64,000 nucleotides of DNA from Novosphingobium sp. (GTDB lineage: Bacteria > Pseudomonadota > Alphaproteobacteria > Sphingomonadales > Sphingomonadaceae), in NCBI RefSeq assembly GCF_965214355.1, contig NZ_CBDCBI010000001.1:9587-73586 (forward strand), in the 5' to 3' direction. Numbering within the stretch: position 1 is the first letter of the stretch; each line of letters opens with the position of its first letter. Shown one piece after another: positions 7,383 through 63,779 of this stretch. The notes beneath the pieces are model-generated. The model was not told the DNA's origin and searched no databases. It saw nothing but the letters and a program-made list of their open reading frames with translations. The translations under genes and the position numbers were made by a program.

Positions 7383-8327
7383 ATGGCGACGATTGCTTTT
7401 TCCGACGCAAATGCAGCTTGGCCCGGCGATGCCGGACATGCGTCGCAACACGGCGCGTCGGAGTTCAGCGCGCGCGTGTCTCCGTCATTTGATGCCGACA
7501 CGAAAAATCTGGCCGCGTTTCGCGTGATTGCCACGACCGATTTCAAGAACTCGCTATCCCGGCTGATCGAAAACGAGGTTATTCCGCGCCTGATGCTTGC
7601 GCATGCTTTGGAAACGTTCGACACGATCCCCGCTGCGGTCGTCGCCAGCATCGTTGTCGGTGAAGCAGAGGCGCTCGCGGTGCTGGTGCTGCAAGTCGAC
7701 GCCGGCGTCCTGCTCGCCCATGTAGAGGCGATTTTGGCGCGCGGCGTGACAGTCGATACGGTCATGGTCGACCTGTTGGCGCCCACTGCACGACTGCTTG
7801 GCGAATACTGGGAAAGCGACCGCTGCGACTTCGTCGATGTGACCATGGGGCTGTGGCGCTTGCAAGAAGTCGTGCATGTTATTGCTGCACGTGCACCGTC
7901 GGAAAGATTGCTTGCTGCCGGCGGCCACCGCGCCCTTTTTGCATCGATGCCAGGCGACCAGCATAACTTCGGCACAGTCGTGATCGACGAAATGTTCCGC
8001 CGGGATGGCTGGATTACCGATCGGTTGAGTGGTGCCGAGACGTCAGAGCTGCTCAGACGCGTCGGCGAAGAGTGGTTCGACATGATCGGGTTGACGGTCA
8101 GCTGCGAGTGTCATATCGCGACCCTGCCCTCGGTAATTGTTGCACTGCGGAATGTGTCCAAAAATTCGCAAGTCAGCATTATGGTCGGTGGGCCAGTGTT
8201 CAGCAAAGATCCCGGGCAAGCAGAGAAAGTGGGCGCGGATGGTACCGCACCTGATGCACAAGTGGCCTTGAAAGTGGCAGCTGGCCTTGTTCGTACACGG
8301 CAGAGACAGGCTTTAGCGGGCAATTAA
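7383..8327 (+). CDS. ppaA: Cobalamin-binding photoregulator PpaA/AerR
   Basis: B12-binding-type motif ALFASMPGDQHNFG, LGEYWESD and IMVGG; immediately upstream of ppsR. Start at ATG 7383 after GGGAG. Confidence 0.88.
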   Translation: MATIAFSDANAAWPGDAGHASQHGASEFSARVSPSFDADTKNLAAFRVIATTDFKNSLSRLIENEVIPRLMLAHALETFDTIPAAVVASIVVGEAEALAVLVLQVDAGVLLAHVEAILARGVTVDTVMVDLLAPTARLLGEYWESDRCDFVDVTMGLWRLQEVVHVIAARAPSERLLAAGGHRALFASMPGDQHNFGTVVIDEMFRRDGWITDRLSGAETSELLRRVGEEWFDMIGLTVSCECHIATLPSVIVALRNVSKNSQVSIMVGGPVFSKDPGQAEKVGADGTAPDAQVALKVAAGLVRTRQRQALAGN

Positions 8328-56691: not shown

Positions 56692-57107
56692 CGGGCAAGC
56701 CTGTCGCCACCCGTAATTCGACAAGGACAAAATCACCGGTCGCAGCCGTTCGTGATCCGTTTACGCTTAGCGTCCACAAAACTCACTTTCGTGTAGTGAA
56801 CCTTCGAATCCTCAAAGTGTGCACTTCCTGTTAGCGTCCGCCCGGGAACATCATTGTTCCTGCCATTTAGAAAAGACACAAATTCCGCCAGATAGAAATG
56901 TCACACGCCGGGGTCAGCAGGGGCTGCGCGGAACCCTCCAAATTGTGCAGCGTAGCCCCTGCTGATGCACTGGGCTGGCATGGATGCGCCTCGGACCCGC
57001 TGCTCTGCAGTGGGCCCGCTTAATCTGCGGAACCGTTTAGTTGGCGGACAGTCTCCTCGTGCTCTGCTAACGGAGGTGTTTGACTGGACCAAAGCGCGAG
57101 GGGTAAA

Positions 57108-57377
57108 ATGGATCGCCAGGAACTTCACGATCGCTTGATTGCCGCAAACGTCGATCCGAGAGTATTCGACGTTCTCGGATCTGATCCGGATCCTTTCCCC
57201 GGAGACATCTTTGTTCTCCGCCATGTTCAAATACGTGACGCCGGCACACCGAATTATTGGACCACTTATTATTGTGAAAGAGGTGGGCGCTACTTTGCCA
57301 GCCGATTTGCGTCGGAAGATGAGGCGTGCAGGCATTTGTTTCTGCAGATTACCAAATCTCCCATAATCACGCCGTAA
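57108..57377 (+). CDS. Small hypothetical protein, possibly an orphan polymorphic-toxin immunity protein
   Basis: 89 aa with GAGG RBS and a WTTYYCERG...FASEDEAC motif; family assignment is from memory only. Confidence 0.6.
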   Translation: MDRQELHDRLIAANVDPRVFDVLGSDPDPFPGDIFVLRHVQIRDAGTPNYWTTYYCERGGRYFASRFASEDEACRHLFLQITKSPIITP

Positions 57378-57396
57378 TCATTGCCTGAAGTCGGCG

Positions 57397-58770
57397 TTAC
57401 TCCTTTTCCGCGAGCGTGAGTTGGCGCAGGGGAGGGCGTCCACGCTTGCGTTTAGCCGGCGCTAATGCGTCAGGCTCCGGCACCGCAAACATATGTGCCC
57501 CCTGCGATCGGCGCTTGGGTTCGTTGTTGTTGCGCTTCCGCACCGGCAGTTGCTCCTGCATCAGCTTGGCCATCATCAGCGCGGCATCGAGATGCTTGTT
57601 TTCGACAATCGCTGCCTGGTTCACTTTCCAGATCTTGTCGAACACGCGATAGGGCAGCACATGATCGCCGTGCCTGATTTCCAGGCTGCCATCAGGATAT
57701 TCGCACACATCCACACGCTTGCCCGCCAACGGCCGGGTGATCTCTGTCGGTTCGAGGATGAACAGCACCTTGTTGTAATGCAACGCCAAGGCCCGGGTTA
57801 CCGCGCGCTCTTCGCGCCAGACCATCACGACGCGCATATCATCATCCGAGGCGAGGGGGCGGTGAAGGTCGCGCGCATCGAACGCGGGCTTGGCAAACCG
57901 CGCATTATGCTGCGCCATGTAGGCCGGCAGAAACGCGTTAGCCTCAGCGATCGTTGCAATACCTTCGAGCCGCATCGCCTTGACCAACCGGTCCTGCAAA
58001 GTCGCATTCGCGCGCTCGACCCGACCCTTGGCTTGCGGAGAATTGGCGCAGATAATCTCGATGTTCAGTGTTTCCATCGCACGACCAAAATGCGTCATGC
58101 CGTCACCTTTGGCAGACGCTGTGTTGTTGCGGAAAACCGAGTGTTTGTCTGAATATAGCGCCACAGGCTTGCCGTGACGTTCGATATATTCGCGCGTCGC
58201 ATCCATGTAGGAAAACGTGCTCTCGCTCTCGACCATCTTCAGCTGCATCAGTTCGCTGGTTGCGTCGTCGATATAGACCAGCAAGGTGCATTGCGGCCCG
58301 CGATCCTCGAACCACCAGTGCTTCGAGCCATCGACCTGGATCAGTTCACCACGGCAATCACGCCGGTAGCGCGGTTGGTAAGGGCGAGGGCGCCGCGCCG
58401 CACGGTCTTGCCACAATCCGGCCCCCATCATCAACTGCCGCAAAGTCTCGCGCGCTATCGTGATCTTGTGCCGTTCGGCCAAATACTCGGTCGCCAAAGT
58501 CGGCCCGAAATCAGCATAATGCTCACGAACCAGCGTCATGATCCGCTCGCAAAAAGTATCGCTATGCCGCCTGTTGCTGGGCTTGCCGCGTTTGCGGGAA
58601 ACAAGGCCTTCGGCACCATCCGCGCGCAAACGGATCAGCAATCGACCGACCTGACGACGCGACAACCCCAAAAGTGTCGCAGCGTCCTCAACTCGCAGTT
58701 CGCGCCGCGTAACCCGAAGCAGTGTGTCGTATCGCGAGAGCTCGCTCTGGCTCATTGCCACCACCGTCAT
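57397..58770 (-). CDS. DDE transposase (IS481-related, ISNCY/IS1202 family)
   Basis: N-terminal HTH (LLGLSRRQVGRL), GELIQVDGS (D), ALYSDKH (D) and PQAKGRVER (E). Confidence 0.93.
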   Translation of the reverse strand: MTVVAMSQSELSRYDTLLRVTRRELRVEDAATLLGLSRRQVGRLLIRLRADGAEGLVSRKRGKPSNRRHSDTFCERIMTLVREHYADFGPTLATEYLAERHKITIARETLRQLMMGAGLWQDRAARRPRPYQPRYRRDCRGELIQVDGSKHWWFEDRGPQCTLLVYIDDATSELMQLKMVESESTFSYMDATREYIERHGKPVALYSDKHSVFRNNTASAKGDGMTHFGRAMETLNIEIICANSPQAKGRVERANATLQDRLVKAMRLEGIATIAEANAFLPAYMAQHNARFAKPAFDARDLHRPLASDDDMRVVMVWREERAVTRALALHYNKVLFILEPTEITRPLAGKRVDVCEYPDGSLEIRHGDHVLPYRVFDKIWKVNQAAIVENKHLDAALMMAKLMQEQLPVRKRNNNEPKRRSQGAHMFAVPEPDALAPAKRKRGRPPLRQLTLAEKE

Positions 58771-58890
58771 AGACACATCCTTCAGACACTGAAGGATGAC
58801 TATGCCACCACAGACCCGCGAGCGCCCATCAGCATGGGACATTTCTAAAATAGCGGGATGGGACATTTCTATCTGGCGCTTACAATTATC

Positions 58891-58918
58891 TGGTTCGATA
58901 ATATTAATTATGTTAATA
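58891..58918. other. dif-like XerC/XerD recombination site (xrs/pdif)
   Basis: TGGTTCGATAA-TATTAA-TTATGTTAATA has the 11-6-11 layout. The right arm matches E. coli dif TTATGTTAAAT at 9/11, the left arm ends ATAA, and the IS end lies 6 bp outside the left arm. Confidence 0.7.
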
Positions 58919-59005
58919 GCGACACCACGAGTGTCCATGTAATCTGTGTCCAGTGTGATGGGAATCGCTTGCGGTATCCGGTTTCCTTCAACAGTATCTG
59001 CGACC

Positions 59006-60220
59006 GTGTCCACTTCGTTCGCCACAACGCCTTGGCAGGCTGCACGCATCGAAATGCCCGGCGGTCGCAGGGCGTGGACGGTTGTGAATGACGATGGCGA
59101 TGTCGTCGAAAGCCTTCGTAACTGGATCGTGCATCTCGAACAAACCAGCACTTCGCCGAACACGATCCGTGCGTATGTTCGCCACGTTGTCGACTTCGCG
59201 AACTTCATCGTCGCCAATGGCGCCGGCATCGGTGAAGCCACGGTAGCGTTGTATGACAGTTTCCTGGCCTGGCGGCTTGCGCGGCGAAAAGATGCATTGC
59301 CGAGCCCGCGGCTGATCCTGCTGAACAAGCAGAAAACGCGAATTCTGGCGCCATCGACGCGCAATCAGATCCAGCTCGCGGTCAAATCGTTTTATCGCTT
59401 CTACAATGGCACCGACGACTTCGCGGTCGACACCCGTGATGTTGCCAGGGCTTATGACGGGCACCGACTTTACAAGCCGTTCCTGGAACATATCAGCCAG
59501 CGCCGCACGACGCGGCGCAAGGACCGCTATCTGTCAGGCGATCCCGGCAAGGTTCAGCAGCAGGTGCTCAAGAAGCGATTGACGCCAGGCGAGGTGTTGC
59601 GGCTAATCGAGGCTTGCGGGCTCGCGCGCGACGCGTTCCTGATTGTGCTGCTCTACAACACCGGCCTCAGGATCGGTGAAGCGCTGGGCTTGCGCCACGT
59701 TGACATCGATCTTGCCGAAAGGGTCATCTGGGTCGTTCCGCGCGAAGACAATGCCAATGAGGCCCGCGCGAAATCCGGGCGCACGCGCGGTGTGCCGGTG
59801 CACGAATACGTGCTGAACATGTACGTCGATTACCTCACCAGCAACGAATATCTGCCGGCGTTCGAGGCCGGCGCGGAATATGTCTTTGCCAATGTCAAAG
59901 CCGGCGCCATCGGCCATGCCATGGGCCTGTCTTACGCGCAGAAGCTCGCGGGTATGCTGAGGCAGCGCACCCATATCGCCTTCAGCTGGCACATGTTCCG
60001 CCACAGCCATGCATCCGAAGCGATCGCGGCGGGATACAGCCTGCTCGAAGTGGCTGATCGCCTTGGGCATGCCAGCCCGCAGACGACCGCAGCGTTCTAC
60101 CAGCACCTGTTCGCCTCGGAAATCCGCAGACTTTATCTCACAGGTCCCAACGAGGTGCATGAAAGACTTGGGAAACTTCGTGAGGCGGAACTGCTCGGGA
60201 AGGATTTGCGATGGGCATGA
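59006..60220 (+). CDS. Tyrosine recombinase, Tn554 TnpA-like
   Basis: SPNTIRAY, LYNTGLRIGEAL (R), WHMFRH (HxxR) and LGHASPQTTAAFY (H, Y); start uncertain. Confidence 0.88.
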   Translation: MSTSFATTPWQAARIEMPGGRRAWTVVNDDGDVVESLRNWIVHLEQTSTSPNTIRAYVRHVVDFANFIVANGAGIGEATVALYDSFLAWRLARRKDALPSPRLILLNKQKTRILAPSTRNQIQLAVKSFYRFYNGTDDFAVDTRDVARAYDGHRLYKPFLEHISQRRTTRRKDRYLSGDPGKVQQQVLKKRLTPGEVLRLIEACGLARDAFLIVLLYNTGLRIGEALGLRHVDIDLAERVIWVVPREDNANEARAKSGRTRGVPVHEYVLNMYVDYLTSNEYLPAFEAGAEYVFANVKAGAIGHAMGLSYAQKLAGMLRQRTHIAFSWHMFRHSHASEAIAAGYSLLEVADRLGHASPQTTAAFYQHLFASEIRRLYLTGPNEVHERLGKLREAELLGKDLRWA

Positions 60221-62343
60221 CGCCGCTGGCGGTAGTCGGCGGCACACCGCACGATACCGATCGCTACAGCAACTGGCTTGAAGGGCGTCTTGCTGAAATA
60301 TCCCCCCTCCTCGTCACCAATACCATCTGGTCGGACGCCGTAATGCGAGAGGTGTTCGGCCATCCCTGGTTGAGCCAGACATATGCAAGCCTGCCGCTTG
60401 GCGCTGCGGTTCCGGTCCTGACCAACGAGATCAAGACGTACCTGGCGGCATCCGTGCTCGACGATCGCAAGGCGGACGCCCACTGGTTCCAGCGCCGCAT
60501 CCCGGTGATCCGCTATCTCGTCGAGGAAGGTGCGGACCTGCTTCGCCACTTTGAGGCGACCTGCCTTGCCGACATCCCTCACCCGGGCTTCGCGCCATCC
60601 GATAACGCGGGAGCGCGCAAATCGAACCAGCACAGCGATGCAGTGCTGGCGCTTTACGCCGCCTGGTATGGCACGAACTATGGGCAGCGCAGGCAAAGCC
60701 AGACCCGCCAGTGGATCCGGGATGGCGAAATCGTCACCACCCAGTACCGCTCACCGGAAATACAGCTGTTCGGCGATATCCATCGCTTCGCGATCATCAA
60801 CCGGGCGCAGATGGCGCCGATGCATGACCGTGACATCATCCTGCTCAACGATCTCTACAGCGAAGACGACACGCGCTTCCGTGATCGGCAGCGGTTGAAC
60901 GACACCTATATCAGCTTGCTGAACTTCGAGCCGTGGCTTCGCCCGCTGATGCGCGGCTTCCTGCTCGACAAGGTCGCGCATGGCGAATTGGCGCCGGCCA
61001 CCATGGTGACGTTGATCTCGCGCTTGCGTCTGTTCGCGCGGTTCCTGTGCGAACAGGAAATTGCCGCCGCCGGACAAATCAACGAGCCGCTGATGGAGCG
61101 CTACCTGGCCTGGGGGAACACGCGGCACACCGCCGGCAAAAACTGGTACACCGATATCGTCCAACTCCTGCGCGCGGCGCCGGTATTGCTGCCGGGGCAG
61201 TGGCCTCGGATTGCGCTCGACAAGCGCGCGGCACGGCGCATCCGCTACAAGCAGGCGCCAGATGACCCCCGCAACCGGCTCTACGCTTCGCGTGAAGGCG
61301 CCAACCGGGCGGCGCCTCCCGAGGCCCTGGCCGCCATGGTGGCCAGGCTCGATGAACTGCCCGCGCCCATCCCTGCGATCTTCATGATCGGGATCACAAC
61401 CGGGGCACGAGCGGAAGACCTGCATGCCCTGCTCTTCGACTGCCTGCGGCCCGATCCGCACGACAAGCGATTCATGCTGTTCACGTTCTGGCAGAACAAG
61501 GTCAGTCGCTGGAACACCAAGCCTTTGCTGGCAACCGATCCAGCGCACCGGACCATGATCGAGCTGATCGAAGCCCAGCAACATCGTATCCGGGCGCGGT
61601 ATGGTCACGCCACCAAGTACCTGTTCCCGGTCTTTTATGGGAAACGGGAATCGTTCCTCGGCAACAACTGGACTTTGCAGGAGCTCAGAATGCTGAGCCT
61701 CAGGCACGGGATCGTCGATGGCGAAGGCAATCCGTTCGACTTCTCGTGGCATCCGCTGCGCCACCATCGCGGGACACAGATGGCAGCCGAAGGGCACGAC
61801 ATCCTGAGCATCATGTTCGAGCTCGGCCATGCTTCGCCCGACATGGCCTCGATGTACGTCAACAAGCGCCTCGACCTCAAAAAGAACACCTTGCTGCGCA
61901 AAGGCGGCGGGCAGTTCTTCACGATTGCCGGCAAGGTCGACGAGGCCGTCGGCGATCTCCTGCTGCGCAAGGAAACCATGCTGGCCACACGGGTTTGCGG
62001 CGGTGCCTGCACCCTGCCGGGCCAGCTTGGCGAATGGTGCGAGCATGCCCATGCCTGTCTGACCTGCCGGTTCTTCCGCGCCGATGGTGACGACCTCGAG
62101 CACTTCCGCGGCGAACGCGCCGGACTTTACGTCGCGATCGCAGGGCTCGAGCAGGAAGCCCAGAATTACGAGGAGGGCGGCCAAACCCGCTTGGCAGACA
62201 TCGCTCGCAAGCGGTTGCAGCGGAACAAAGACGCTGTCCACAACACCGACACCATCGTCCGTTCCATCGAGGAGCACGGCCACTACAAGGGCGAAAAGCA
62301 GCGCTACAAGCCAGCCTCTGCTCGGGAAGACGCGAAATCATGA
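60211..62343 (+). CDS. Large tyrosine recombinase, Tn554 TnpB-like
   Basis: TTGARAED, WHPLRHHRGT, LGHASPDMASMY and Cys-rich C-terminal GACTLP...CEHAHACLTCRFF. Confidence 0.88.
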   Translation: MGMTPLAVVGGTPHDTDRYSNWLEGRLAEISPLLVTNTIWSDAVMREVFGHPWLSQTYASLPLGAAVPVLTNEIKTYLAASVLDDRKADAHWFQRRIPVIRYLVEEGADLLRHFEATCLADIPHPGFAPSDNAGARKSNQHSDAVLALYAAWYGTNYGQRRQSQTRQWIRDGEIVTTQYRSPEIQLFGDIHRFAIINRAQMAPMHDRDIILLNDLYSEDDTRFRDRQRLNDTYISLLNFEPWLRPLMRGFLLDKVAHGELAPATMVTLISRLRLFARFLCEQEIAAAGQINEPLMERYLAWGNTRHTAGKNWYTDIVQLLRAAPVLLPGQWPRIALDKRAARRIRYKQAPDDPRNRLYASREGANRAAPPEALAAMVARLDELPAPIPAIFMIGITTGARAEDLHALLFDCLRPDPHDKRFMLFTFWQNKVSRWNTKPLLATDPAHRTMIELIEAQQHRIRARYGHATKYLFPVFYGKRESFLGNNWTLQELRMLSLRHGIVDGEGNPFDFSWHPLRHHRGTQMAAEGHDILSIMFELGHASPDMASMYVNKRLDLKKNTLLRKGGGQFFTIAGKVDEAVGDLLLRKETMLATRVCGGACTLPGQLGEWCEHAHACLTCRFFRADGDDLEHFRGERAGLYVAIAGLEQEAQNYEEGGQTRLADIARKRLQRNKDAVHNTDTIVRSIEEHGHYKGEKQRYKPASAREDAKS

Positions 62344-62819
62344 CCATGGGACCCGATCTGCGGATCGCAACACTCAACGATGCCCGCAGCCGCCGCAGTG
62401 CAGAAAAGCGCGCCGCGGTCGAGGATGCCATCATGCGCCTGCGCGAAACGAAGCAGGTCGTGACGTTCGTGTCGGTGGCCCGCGAGGCCAAGGTCAGCCG
62501 CCAATACCTCTATAACAACTTCGTCGACGAGATCGGAGAGGAACGCGTCGAAACCCGTGCGGAAACCGAAGTAATTAACGGCAAGAAGGTCCCGCTGCGA
62601 ACGCCCGAGGAATACCGGCACATCGAAGCCGCGCTTCGCAACAAGATCGATCGCCTTGAAACCGAGCTCCGCGACGCGCGCGCCGAAAAAGCCAAGGCGG
62701 ACCGAACAGCCGAACGCGAGCGCGGCAAGGCTGAGCATTGGCACCAGCTCTACACAGTCGTCCTGACGCGCGTATCGGCGGGAAATGCGCCTGCTCCGCC
62801 GCCGCCGGCCGAAGATTAA
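62340..62819 (+). CDS. TnpC-like (DUF6262-type) accessory protein
   Basis: AVEDAIMRL...VTFVSVAREAKVSRQYLY HTH followed by a coiled coil; ATGA overlap with the TnpB-like gene. Confidence 0.82.
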   Translation: MTMGPDLRIATLNDARSRRSAEKRAAVEDAIMRLRETKQVVTFVSVAREAKVSRQYLYNNFVDEIGEERVETRAETEVINGKKVPLRTPEEYRHIEAALRNKIDRLETELRDARAEKAKADRTAERERGKAEHWHQLYTVVLTRVSAGNAPAPPPPAED

Positions 62820-62961
62820 ACCGTCGCGCATCGATCGAGTTACGCTCAAGGGAGTTTGAAGTGAGCCGCCTGCGGCGTCTTGCACTTCCAACTCCCTTGG
62901 GCGTCCAAATTATGGGCGAAACACAGTTGACACACGTTCTGCTATCAACCGATTGAAATTA

Positions 62962-63372
62962 CTATAAAAGACGCGACCTGGTGCTGATATATGTTAAATG
63001 ACCGCGGGGTTTGGCGGCCCTGGAACTCGTTGTGCCGCCGGCAGCGTGCTGGCTCACAGGCGTCCCGTCGATCAGGATCACACGGTCCTCGTCAATAATC
63101 TTGCGAAAAGCTTCACTGGTGGTCGCCCAATCGAGCAGATCCACTTTCCACGGCAAGTCAGACTCGTCAAAGGCGTCTGCAAGGTCACTCAGCAGCGCCG
63201 CAGGCAACGGATGTTTACCGGCCAAGGCCAGATCGAGATCGGAATAGCGCTGCGCATTGCCCTTGGTTCGGCTACCGAACGCCCAGACAGCGATGCCCGT
63301 TGGCACATGCCTCGCGAGCGTCTCGAGCAGGATCGCCTCATGTTCCGGGCTCAGGTCCAGCAACCCCGTCAT
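62962..63372 (-). CDS. Minimal nucleotidyltransferase (MNT) antitoxin
   Basis: AFGSRTKGNAQRYSDLDL (GS-x10-DxD) and KVDLLD; ATGA overlap with the HEPN gene. Confidence 0.88.
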   Translation of the reverse strand: MTGLLDLSPEHEAILLETLARHVPTGIAVWAFGSRTKGNAQRYSDLDLALAGKHPLPAALLSDLADAFDESDLPWKVDLLDWATTSEAFRKIIDEDRVILIDGTPVSQHAAGGTTSSRAAKPRGHLTYISTRSRLL

Positions 63373-63779
63373 TCCGTGCCCGCGCGTTCGACAAGGCGGT
63401 CGCGCAAAAAACCGGCTTCGAAGATGAAATCAGGTATGCTTGCGACCACCTCCAAGGCTTTGGCCTCGTCATAGGTATGGGACGTGATGTTGCGCTTATC
63501 GCGATATAGCTTCCATTGCGCCCACTCGCCACGCAGCAGTCCCTGTTCAGAACCGGTACGGATCAGCGCAGGAAACGACATATGCTCGACAACCTCTGGG
63601 GTCGGGGCGGTTTGGGTCAGGTAGCGTTTCAACATTTTGTGGCTGAGATCATAGGTGAATTCAAAGCGCTGAACGAGGCCGTCGCGAATTTGCTGGTCCG
63701 ACGTATCCTTCAGATAGCGGGCATAGCCCTCCTCCAATCGCGCGAGTGCAGATGCCAGCGGGGTTAGGTCAAGCGCCAT
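63369..63779 (-). CDS. HEPN-domain toxin (HI0074/nucleotidyltransferase substrate-binding family)
   Basis: DGLVQRFEFTYDLSHK and RNITSHTY (Rx4H followed by Tyr). Confidence 0.88.
   Translation of the reverse strand: MALDLTPLASALARLEEGYARYLKDTSDQQIRDGLVQRFEFTYDLSHKMLKRYLTQTAPTPEVVEHMSFPALIRTGSEQGLLRGEWAQWKLYRDKRNITSHTYDEAKALEVVASIPDFIFEAGFLRDRLVERAGTE

Follow-up and report, generated by a model that had tools for sequence, protein, structure and literature searches.

Does the position of an insertion sequence (IS) beside a dif-like sequence on a Novosphingobium plasmid mark a genuine site of action of the host XerC and XerD recombinases? The question is raised by a stretch of 64,000 nucleotides from Novosphingobium sp. 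(contig NZ_CBDCBI010000001.1, positions 9,587 to 73,586; hereafter called the window), in which the transposase-proximal end of an IS1202-type IS, its left inverted repeat (IRL), lies 6 bp from the 11-6-11 sequence TGGTTCGATAA-TATTAA-TTATGTTAATA. An earlier note, made from the letters of the window, had taken this position as independent support for a functional Xer recombination site (xrs). The window belongs to a plasmid of 126,451 bp, which together with a 4.14-Mb chromosome makes up the 4.27-Mb genome of the host. Our analyses make it highly likely that the plasmid carries a dif-type Xer site that was targeted by an IS1202-family IS, the other arm of the same site having been used independently by a Tn554-like element.

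On the + strand, the IS ends in ...GGCGCTTACA at 58884, followed by ATTATC. The positions that the earlier note had given for the tip (ACA, 58882-58884), for ATTATC (58885-58890) and for the 11-6-11 site (58891-58918) are correct; the extent that it had given for the whole element, 56829-58918, had to be revised. We set the ends of the IS where homology with same-genus relatives that are 76-80% identical starts and stops. This defines an IS of 2030 bp (56855-58884), present as one full copy in the host genome, with TGT at 56855 and ACA, i.e. TGT on the transposase strand, at its other tip; the 28-mer is outside the IS. A left boundary at 56829 (TGTTAGCG) was rejected, as the homology of the relatives begins at 56855. 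At the corrected left end, ATCAT and the ATTAT of the right flank form a near-perfect 5-bp duplication (4/5 identical, with one transition; chance ~0.016). The caveat that no ATTAT(C) duplication is present at the far end thus falls, as it arose because the left boundary had been wrongly placed. Four relatives at 72-81% protein identity are flanked by perfect 5-bp duplications, AAACG, GCGCT, GCTTC and CTCCA.

The inverted repeats are 25 bp long and imperfect, with 16/25 identical positions between the right inverted repeat (IRR, TGTTCCTGCCATTTAGAAAAGACAC) and the IRL (TGTAAGCGCCAGATAGAAATGTCCC). A second copy of their core is present a few bases inward of each end (56886-56904 and 58834-58852); an inner binding site near each end is a feature of the IS1202 family according to Harmer et al. 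2023 (PMC10132070). We also considered that the IS might end at the long inverted repeat 56886/58878, with GCTTACA assigned to the neighbouring element, an idea that came from the presence of GCTTACA on the chromosome as well. It was rejected, as the relatives and an Acinetobacter copy all end in ...CTTACA; the long inverted repeats are the inner binding-site copies and not the IS ends. An internal ATTAT/TGT at ~57273, which would give a 1612-bp IS, was dismissed as a chance occurrence, there being no IRR-like sequence at that place.

The transposase matches the NCBIfam model NF033594 (transpos_ISNCY_2) with 494.9 bits (E=1.5e-148, for a cut-off of 250), and the IS481 model with only 113 bits. 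The IS1202 family and its subgroups were defined by Siguier et al. 2022 (bioRxiv 10.1101/2022.12.17.520857) and Harmer et al. 2023 (PMC10132070), the family being marked by a Q, not K/R, seven residues after the catalytic E and by two extra conserved D residues between D1 and D2. Accordingly, the motifs of our transposase (IQVDGS, YIDDAT, LYSDK and GRVERANATLQ) contain the DDE triad and, between D1 and D2, a DD pair, with Q seven residues beyond E, and they align with those of ISKpn21-, ISLad2-, ISEsa1- and Acinetobacter-type proteins. Together with the TGT/ACA tips, the profile score and these motifs bear out the IS1202-type identity proposed earlier.

Membership of a subgroup can be assessed from the same alignment. 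Through the catalytic domain the protein aligns almost without gaps with the ISKpn21-, ISLad2- and Acinetobacter-type proteins, to which it is 45-50% identical; its identity to that of ISEsa1 is 41%. It thus sides with the short-duplication group, which has neither the ~30-aa insertion of the IS1202 subgroup nor the 5-10-aa D2-E insertion of the ISTde1 subgroup; this placement is indirect, as it relies on that alignment to the four types named. The values of 45-50% correspond to the identity range given within the short-duplication group (Harmer 2023, PMC10132070). In addition, the IRL begins with TGTAAGCGC..., with C at position 9 as in the ISAba32/ISAjo2 subgroup. Only the latter makes duplications of 3-6 bp (Siguier 2022, 10.1101/2022.12.17.520857; Harmer 2023, PMC10132070, with 3-5 bp in Harmer), and its members insert beside XerCD sites, both on plasmids and at chromosomal dif, where their IRL lies outside the XerC arm at a distance of 5-6 bp (Siguier 2022; Harmer 2023, PMC10132070). 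Circle intermediates, the orientation of the IRL and the 5-6 bp distance are known from the same literature (Siguier 2022, 10.1101/2022.12.17.520857; Harmer 2023, PMC10132070), and the rule given in the earlier note, namely IRL proximal and a few bp outside the XerC arm, agrees with both papers. Judged by sequence, the assignment of the IS to the IS1202 family and to its xrs-targeting short-duplication subgroup holds. Its closest named relative is 81.8% identical, and it is probably a new, unnamed member of a kind already published in 2022-23.

We examined the flanks of other copies, a check that the earlier note had suggested. In all four same-genus relatives the IRL is exactly 6 bp from an 11-6-11 site, each time a different one. 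Among 400 genomes of the family, all 15 evaluable copies have their IRL beside a dif-like site, at distances of 6 bp (eight copies), 5 bp (three copies), 7, 8, 16 and 16 bp. Named assemblies of Novosphingobium, Sphingobium, Sphingomonas and others gave the same picture for 24/24 evaluable loci, almost all at 6 bp and one at 17 bp; the family-level and named sets may overlap in genomes, so that their counts are not fully independent. The transposase thus falls inside the xrs-targeting clade, its relatives being located beside dif-like sites in all evaluable cases. Sphingobium sp. R-21 has one IS copy beside a different site on each of chromosome 1, chromosome 2 and a plasmid. Both the XerC arms and the spacers vary among the IS-adjacent sites, which indicates that the site does not travel with the IS, and no dif-like site was found on the IRR side of the IS copies examined. 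As a positive control, the IS of the Acinetobacter baumannii plasmid p8E072658 has an almost identical IRL (GGACATTTCTACTTGGGGCTTACA), 5 bp from the pdif (plasmid dif) site ACTTCGCATAA-CAACCA-TTATGTTAAAT. Siguier 2022 (10.1101/2022.12.17.520857) cites an IS1202-related circle in Sphingobium herbicidovorans; we found no description of the IS1202 family in Sphingomonas in the literature searched.

In three loci on Klebsiella/Raoultella plasmids (L092, L094 and L095), the IS3-family element ISKpn38 adjoins the truncated IRL of ISKpn21-, ISLad2- and ISEsa1-family copies. ISKpn38 may be another IS that prefers these IS ends or the flank of the xrs.

We then compared the plasmid site with the host dif, as the earlier note had recommended. 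The chromosome (C2) has a single strong dif motif, GGGTTTGATAA-TATTAA-TTATGTTAA.., at C2 2,185,612, within a few kb of the maximum of cumulative GC skew (~2.18-2.19 Mb). The spacer and the XerD arm of the plasmid site are identical to those of this chromosomal dif, and its XerC arm is identical at 9/11 positions. Its layout is that of a dif or xrs, 11-6-11 with a XerC arm in ...ATAA and, once rebuilt, a XerD arm of the TTATGTTAAAT type. The two sites of this genome are the only ones with a TATTAA spacer among 31 sites of the genus, the 29 others being devoid of it. With a position weight matrix built from 29 genus dif sites, the plasmid site scores 32.5 bits and the chromosomal dif 34.0 bits, for -2.7 bits for the next best sequence of the 126-kb plasmid; chance occurrence of the site is thus remote. 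A relaxed regular expression for dif yielded only five matches on both strands of the 4.27-Mb genome, and a reversed control pattern of the genus consensus yielded none. That consensus is nnGATTGATAA-TATATA-TTATGTTAAAT, and such sites are found in at least 29 genomes, roughly one per replicon. By both methods the plasmid has one dif-like site only, without several alternating pdif sites bounding modules. The cumulative skew of the plasmid itself turns at this site; on a replicon of such small size the signal is weak.

The host encodes a XerC-like protein (C2:2582716-2583588, best match to XerC with 256 bits) and a XerD-like protein (C2:2221064-2221906, best match to XerD with 263 bits), and no serine resolvase was found anywhere in its genome. 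Because of the targeting fidelity across the clade and the match to the host dif, the plasmid sequence is a well-supported xrs. Most likely it would serve as the dimer-resolution site of the plasmid, handled by the host XerCD. The proposal that the IS position marks a genuine xrs is thus strengthened by the location of the relatives, by the match to the terminus dif and by the XerC- and XerD-like genes of the host. The remark that such sites are little described on alphaproteobacterial plasmids was overstated, as Harmer 2023 (Table 8, PMC10132070) lists ISRel10, ISRel26 and ISMex6 beside dif-like sites.

What lies on the other side of the site was less expected. The segment 58878-63001 of the window has a 99.88% identical repeat on the chromosome, located right at the dif there. 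The five mismatches are confined to the stretch from the IS tip to the XerC-arm core, and the other 4.1 kb are identical. Two large open reading frames (ORFs) of this segment match Phage_integrase (Pfam) with 92.9 and 31.8 bits, and a 159-aa ORF scores 27.5 bits against DUF6262, under the cut-off of 29. The dif sites of the genus otherwise end in TTATGTTAAAT (...TTAAAT); only the two sites of this host end in TTATGTTAATA-GCGACACC. The far end of the repeated element reads ...GGTGCTGATA-TATGTTAA-AT. The last two nucleotides (TA) of the present XerD arm are element DNA, the displaced AT being found at 62998-62999, and the pre-insertion plasmid site rebuilt from both flanks is TGGTTCGATAA-TATTAA-TTATGTTAAAT.

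Relatives of the element are present in three loci (L065, L066 and L067, from genomes G127, G161 and G170, respectively), the G161 copy being a contig of exactly the length of the element. In G127 the element sits in AAGATTGATAA-TAATGA-TTATGTTAA/.../TATGTTAA-AT-CAACAAGTTA, and the same site is uninterrupted in genome G051. Both junctions carry TATGTTAA, on the plasmid and on the chromosome as well as in G127, and the element has no terminal inverted repeats. The rebuilt attachment site of the element, GGTGCTGATA-TATGTTAA-TAGCGACACC, has inverted arms matching at 7/10 positions, as in core sites of tyrosine recombinases. The comparison of the occupied site of G127 with the empty site of G051, together with TATGTTAA at both junctions, establishes that the element inserted within the XerD arm, both in the dif-like site of the plasmid and in the chromosomal dif, and that it is flanked there by the 8-bp TATGTTAA. 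Integration mediated by XerCD, with a crossover in the spacer as for integrative mobile elements exploiting Xer (IMEX), was rejected: the right junction has neither a XerC arm nor a spacer, and the spacer follows the target (G127 vs G051). As only the two outermost bases of the XerD arm are changed, the hybrid 28-mer probably keeps a working Xer site. In G127 an IS1202-type IRL is also 6 bp from the site occupied by the element. Both arms can thus be occupied at once in independent genomes, as is the case in G127 and on the host plasmid. We found no precedent for a Tn554-like element at dif in the literature searched.

Two other IS-adjacent sites, L071 (genome G475) and L117 (Sphingobium aromaticivastans), end in TTATGTTAATA, not in ...AAAT, and no homologue of the Tn554-like recombinases was found within 1.3-2.5 kb of them. 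This ending may be natural variation or reflect a different insertion in the XerD arm. Directly to the right of the dif-like site of the plasmid is a gene pair for a nucleotidyltransferase and a HEPN-type (NTase_sub_bind) protein (window 62962-63779, minus strand). In its present form the nucleotidyltransferase gene extends with its last 13 codons into the right end of the Tn554-like element; the insertion has thus altered the C-terminus of the protein. The features of the locus are collected in Table 1.

Table 1. Coordinates, in window numbering, of the IS, the Xer site and the Tn554-like element
Feature	Position	Strand	Basis or remark
Left copy of target-site duplication, ATCAT	56850..56854	.	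adjoins the true IRR tip; matches ATTAT (58885-58889) at 4/5
IS1202-family IS (ISAba32/ISAjo2 short-duplication subgroup)	56855..58884	-	homology limits with 76-80% relatives; sole copy in genome
IRR, TGTTCCTGCCATTTAGAAAAGACAC	56855..56879	+	16/25 identical to IRL; kept in relatives
Inner repeat of inverted-repeat core near IRR, CGCCAGATAGAAATGTCAC; presumed second transposase-binding site	56886..56904	+	inverted repeat detected
Passenger ORF, 89 aa	57108..57377	+	convergent with transposase gene
Transposase gene, 457 aa, helix-turn-helix and DDE domains	57397..58770	-	profile matches and motifs
Inner repeat of inverted-repeat core near IRL, ATGGGACATTTCTA at 58834 and again at 58858	58834..58852	-	direct repeat detected
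IRL, TGTAAGCGCCAGATAGAAATGTCCC (- strand reading)	58860..58884	-	C at position 9; near-identical to Acinetobacter IRL
Right copy of target-site duplication, ATTAT, then one extra base C (58890)	58885..58889	.	sequence reading
XerC-type arm, TGGTTCGATAA	58891..58901	+	9/11 identical to chromosomal dif arm GGGTTTGATAA
Central region, TATTAA	58902..58907	+	same as chromosomal dif spacer
XerD-type arm as now read, TTATGTTAATA	58908..58918	+	hybrid: TTATGTTAA from plasmid, TA from inserted element
Left copy of TATGTTAA core (attL)	58909..58916	+	comparison of junctions
Tn554-like element body, 4.1 kb	58917..62989	+	identical to chromosome C2 2185625-2181502 apart from flank
Tyrosine recombinase, 424 aa	58946-60220	+	Phage_integrase match
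Tyrosine recombinase, 710 aa, overlaps 424-aa gene	60211-62343	+	Phage_integrase match
Small DUF6262-like protein, 159 aa	62340-62819	+	DUF6262 just below threshold
Right copy of TATGTTAA core (attR)	62990..62997	+	next AT (62998-62999) completes original XerD arm

How would this arrangement have formed? In the explanation that we favour, the plasmid would first have carried one XerCD-type site, TGGTTCGATAA-TATTAA-TTATGTTAAAT, a near copy of the host terminus dif. An IS of the ISAba32/ISAjo2 subgroup would then have transposed beside it, with its IRL at a fixed distance outside the XerC arm, a distance that here would correspond to the 5-bp duplication plus 1 bp. According to the literature, the TnsB-like DDE transposase may pick its target through the XerC side of an occupied or structured xrs and not through a fixed sequence, and the IS would probably move by a copy-out-paste-in route via a circle. 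Independently, the Tn554-like element would integrate by means of its own two tyrosine recombinases at the 8-bp TATGTTAA within the XerD arm, to leave a hybrid site that would differ from the original only in its two outermost bases.

Several points weigh against this explanation. Two related copies are 16 bp and one is 17 bp from their site, and the distance on our plasmid is 6 bp from the conventional 11-nt arm, compared with mostly 5 bp for the Acinetobacter copies. The duplication flanking the IS at 56855-58884 is imperfect (4/5); direct transposition of this copy is what we infer, and recombination between two copies could also have placed the IS here. The XerC- and XerD-like genes score below the curated cut-offs of NCBIfam, as do those of most control genomes, and XerC/XerD binding and dimer resolution at the plasmid site are putative. 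The way in which the transposase would recognise the site is putative, also for the type members of the family.

Other explanations were weighed against the same data. The 28-mer could primarily be an attachment or binding site for the recombinases of the Tn554-like element and not a Xer site, the IS being drawn to the end of that element. The first recombinase gene follows it at a distance of 27 bp, its right part is the attL of the element, and G127 provides a second case of one site between this element and an IS1202-type IRL. We nevertheless regard this as very improbable. At least 29 genomes of the genus that are devoid of the element have the 11-6-11 motif, once per replicon, and the host chromosome has it at its GC-skew terminus; G051 has an uninterrupted copy of the G127 site; and homologues of the element's recombinases are found in 0/35 named IS loci, yet almost all of these have the site. 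Furthermore, the XerC arm and the spacer differ between targets of the element, and they therefore belong to the target. A decayed or inactive dif relic, read by the IS for its DNA sequence or shape only, is somewhat less improbable but still unlikely; the IS position would then be uninformative about Xer function. The alphaproteobacterial ISRel10, ISRel26 and ISMex6 are indeed found beside sequences only loosely similar to pdif (Harmer 2023, PMC10132070), the XerD arm of the plasmid site is interrupted, and Xer function at this site is a prediction. Nevertheless, the site fits the genus dif model as closely as the chromosomal dif (32.5 vs 34.0 bits), it has the unusual spacer of the chromosome and is located at the skew turn of the plasmid, the genome offers no serine resolvase as an alternative, and the insertion of the element alters just the two outermost bases of the XerD arm.

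It is also improbable, although not to the degree of the attachment-site explanation, that the IS did not transpose into the site and that recombination between the chromosome and the plasmid copied a segment comprising the IRL tip, dif and the element from one to the other. Such an event would account for GCTTACA preceding the chromosomal dif in exactly the same 6-bp register in the absence of an IS, and for the TATTAA spacer that the plasmid and chromosomal sites alone share in the genus. However, the two copies differ at 5/10 bases from the tip to the XerC-arm core and are identical over the next 4.1 kb, as expected for two separate targets, and the duplication that flanks the IS on its two sides is near-perfect. 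In relatives, an IS30-family insertion at exactly that nucleotide also leaves a 7-nt IRL tip beside dif, and partial copies that keep the IRL have been described (Siguier 2022, 10.1101/2022.12.17.520857). We thus retain the targeting of a plasmid dif by the IS, with independent use of its XerD arm by the Tn554-like element, as the explanation for this locus.

The chromosomal GCTTACA deserves a closer look. The chromosomal dif is preceded by GCTTACA-ATGCGC. GCTTACA (C2 ~2185619-2185625; locus L003 ~7619-7625, minus strand) corresponds to the last 7 nt of an IS1202-type IRL, in the correct 6-bp register from the XerC arm, yet no IS is present; upstream of it are an ORF of the size of a TonB receptor and a hairpin. 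It is probably the relic of an earlier IS insertion, and partial copies that keep their IRL at 5-6 bp from an xrs have been reported (Siguier 2022, 10.1101/2022.12.17.520857). Related species were searched for the orthologous chromosomal flank, which might show a dif without the GCTTACA relic, but none proved close enough. Sphingobium sp. TA15 (L091, plasmid pTA15-1, NZ_AP025357) and Sphingobium faniae (L112) have an IRL interrupted by an IS30-family IS, whose insertion point is identical in the two, 7 nt from the tip. In both, the order is IS30, GCTTACA, 6 bp and then a dif-like site, and the dif-like sites differ. The junction in L045 (genome G041), where the IS30-family IS is followed by CGCTTACA, is one nucleotide further in. 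Sphingomonas sp. SRS2 and a more distant copy probably also have an interrupted IRL junction, and an IS30-family insertion in the IRL is likewise attributed to the loci L120 and L129. These cases suggest that an IS30-family IS targets the end of another IS. One may hypothesize that the loss of a nested IS1202/IS30 pair left exactly the 7-nt relic.

On balance we lean towards a broader proposal, with rather less assurance than for the plasmid locus itself: the dif of each Sphingomonadaceae replicon would serve three unrelated mobile elements as a nested landing pad. The IS1202-type IS would insert at a fixed distance from the XerC arm, and the Tn554-like transposon at TATGTTAA in the XerD arm, where it would rebuild a near-native dif. 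The IS30-family IS would insert repeatedly at one nucleotide, 7 nt from the IRL tip, which would explain the chromosomal GCTTACA.

The IS has a further peculiarity. The ~0.5 kb between the transposase stop codon and the IRR hold an 89-aa passenger ORF (57108-57377) that has no Pfam or NCBIfam match. We found only three homologues of it in 5.8 billion proteins, none of them inside an IS, and the relatives of the IS have unrelated DNA at this position, seen as an alignment gap. One set of homologues, on soil metagenome contigs, adjoins another pair of tyrosine recombinases (570 and 403 aa); the other has an ordinary chromosomal context.

Our results extend xrs targeting by the ISAba32/ISAjo2 subgroup, with very high fidelity, to a clade distributed across Sphingomonas, Sphingobium and Novosphingobium. 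The targets in this sphingomonad clade, found on chromosomes, second chromosomes and large plasmids, are single dif sites close to the canonical form. The IS can thus be used as a reliable marker to locate the Xer site of a sphingomonad replicon, and the clade offers a second, non-Acinetobacter system to study how the transposase reads the XerC side, with natural variation of arms and spacers at hand. As the plasmid and the chromosome share exactly TATTAA, XerCD could in principle fuse and separate the two replicons. For the IS itself, the result is a confirmation of published behaviour, which already includes alphaproteobacterial examples. The use of dif as the attachment site of a recombinase-bearing Tn554-like element is the less expected result, and the fresher lead.

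Comparison with known systems places the IS closest to the ISAjo2/ISAba32 group of Acinetobacter (Harmer 2023; Siguier 2022). Both have TGT/ACA tips, a TnsB-like DDE transposase (441-457 aa, Q at +7), imperfect inverted repeats of ~25 bp with an inner repeat at each end, and an IRL that faces the XerC arm and is almost identical in sequence (GGACATTTCTAyyTGGsGCTTACA). The 5-bp duplication of the group has a 4/5 counterpart in our copy. They differ by a protein identity of ~48%, by a length of 2030 bp with a passenger ORF compared with 1.5 kb, and by a distance of 6 bp compared with mostly 5 bp. On the large alphaproteobacterial replicon studied here the target is one dif-like site, whereas in Acinetobacter paired pdif sites bound dif modules; the 126-kb plasmid has one site in place of the several alternating pdif sites of that module system. 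ISRel10, ISRel26 and ISMex6 (Harmer 2023, Table 8, PMC10132070), which we compared by their description only, are likewise found on alphaproteobacterial plasmids or chromosomes and adjoin a single dif-like site, 5 bp away in their case; they make a 5-bp duplication, and ISRel10 also has a passenger ORF. In contrast with their loosely dif-like targets, the target here is a near-canonical dif that matches the terminus site of the host. Rhizobium matches are ~48-53% identical. ISKpn21, a 'transporter IS' of the same subgroup, also has a passenger ORF, an unrelated one, and its targets include plasmid xrs as well as chromosomal dif; it differs by its identity of 45%, its passenger and its enterobacterial host.

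The neighbouring element was called Tn554-like on the basis of its gene layout and mode of insertion, its third protein being only near DUF6262 (27.5 vs 29 bits). Like Tn554 of Staphylococcus aureus, it has two overlapping tyrosine-recombinase genes followed by a small third gene, lacks terminal inverted repeats and is inserted site-specifically at a short core seen at both junctions. The target of Tn554 is att554 in radC, whereas that of the element described here is the XerD arm of dif. It also resembles the IMEX elements, such as CTX-phi, TLC-phi and the gonococcal genetic island, in being mobile DNA integrated at dif that leaves a copy of dif, one that is probably usable in the case of our element. 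In contrast, IMEX elements have no recombinase and borrow XerCD for a crossover in the dif spacer, whereas this element has two recombinases of its own and its crossover would take place inside the XerD arm.

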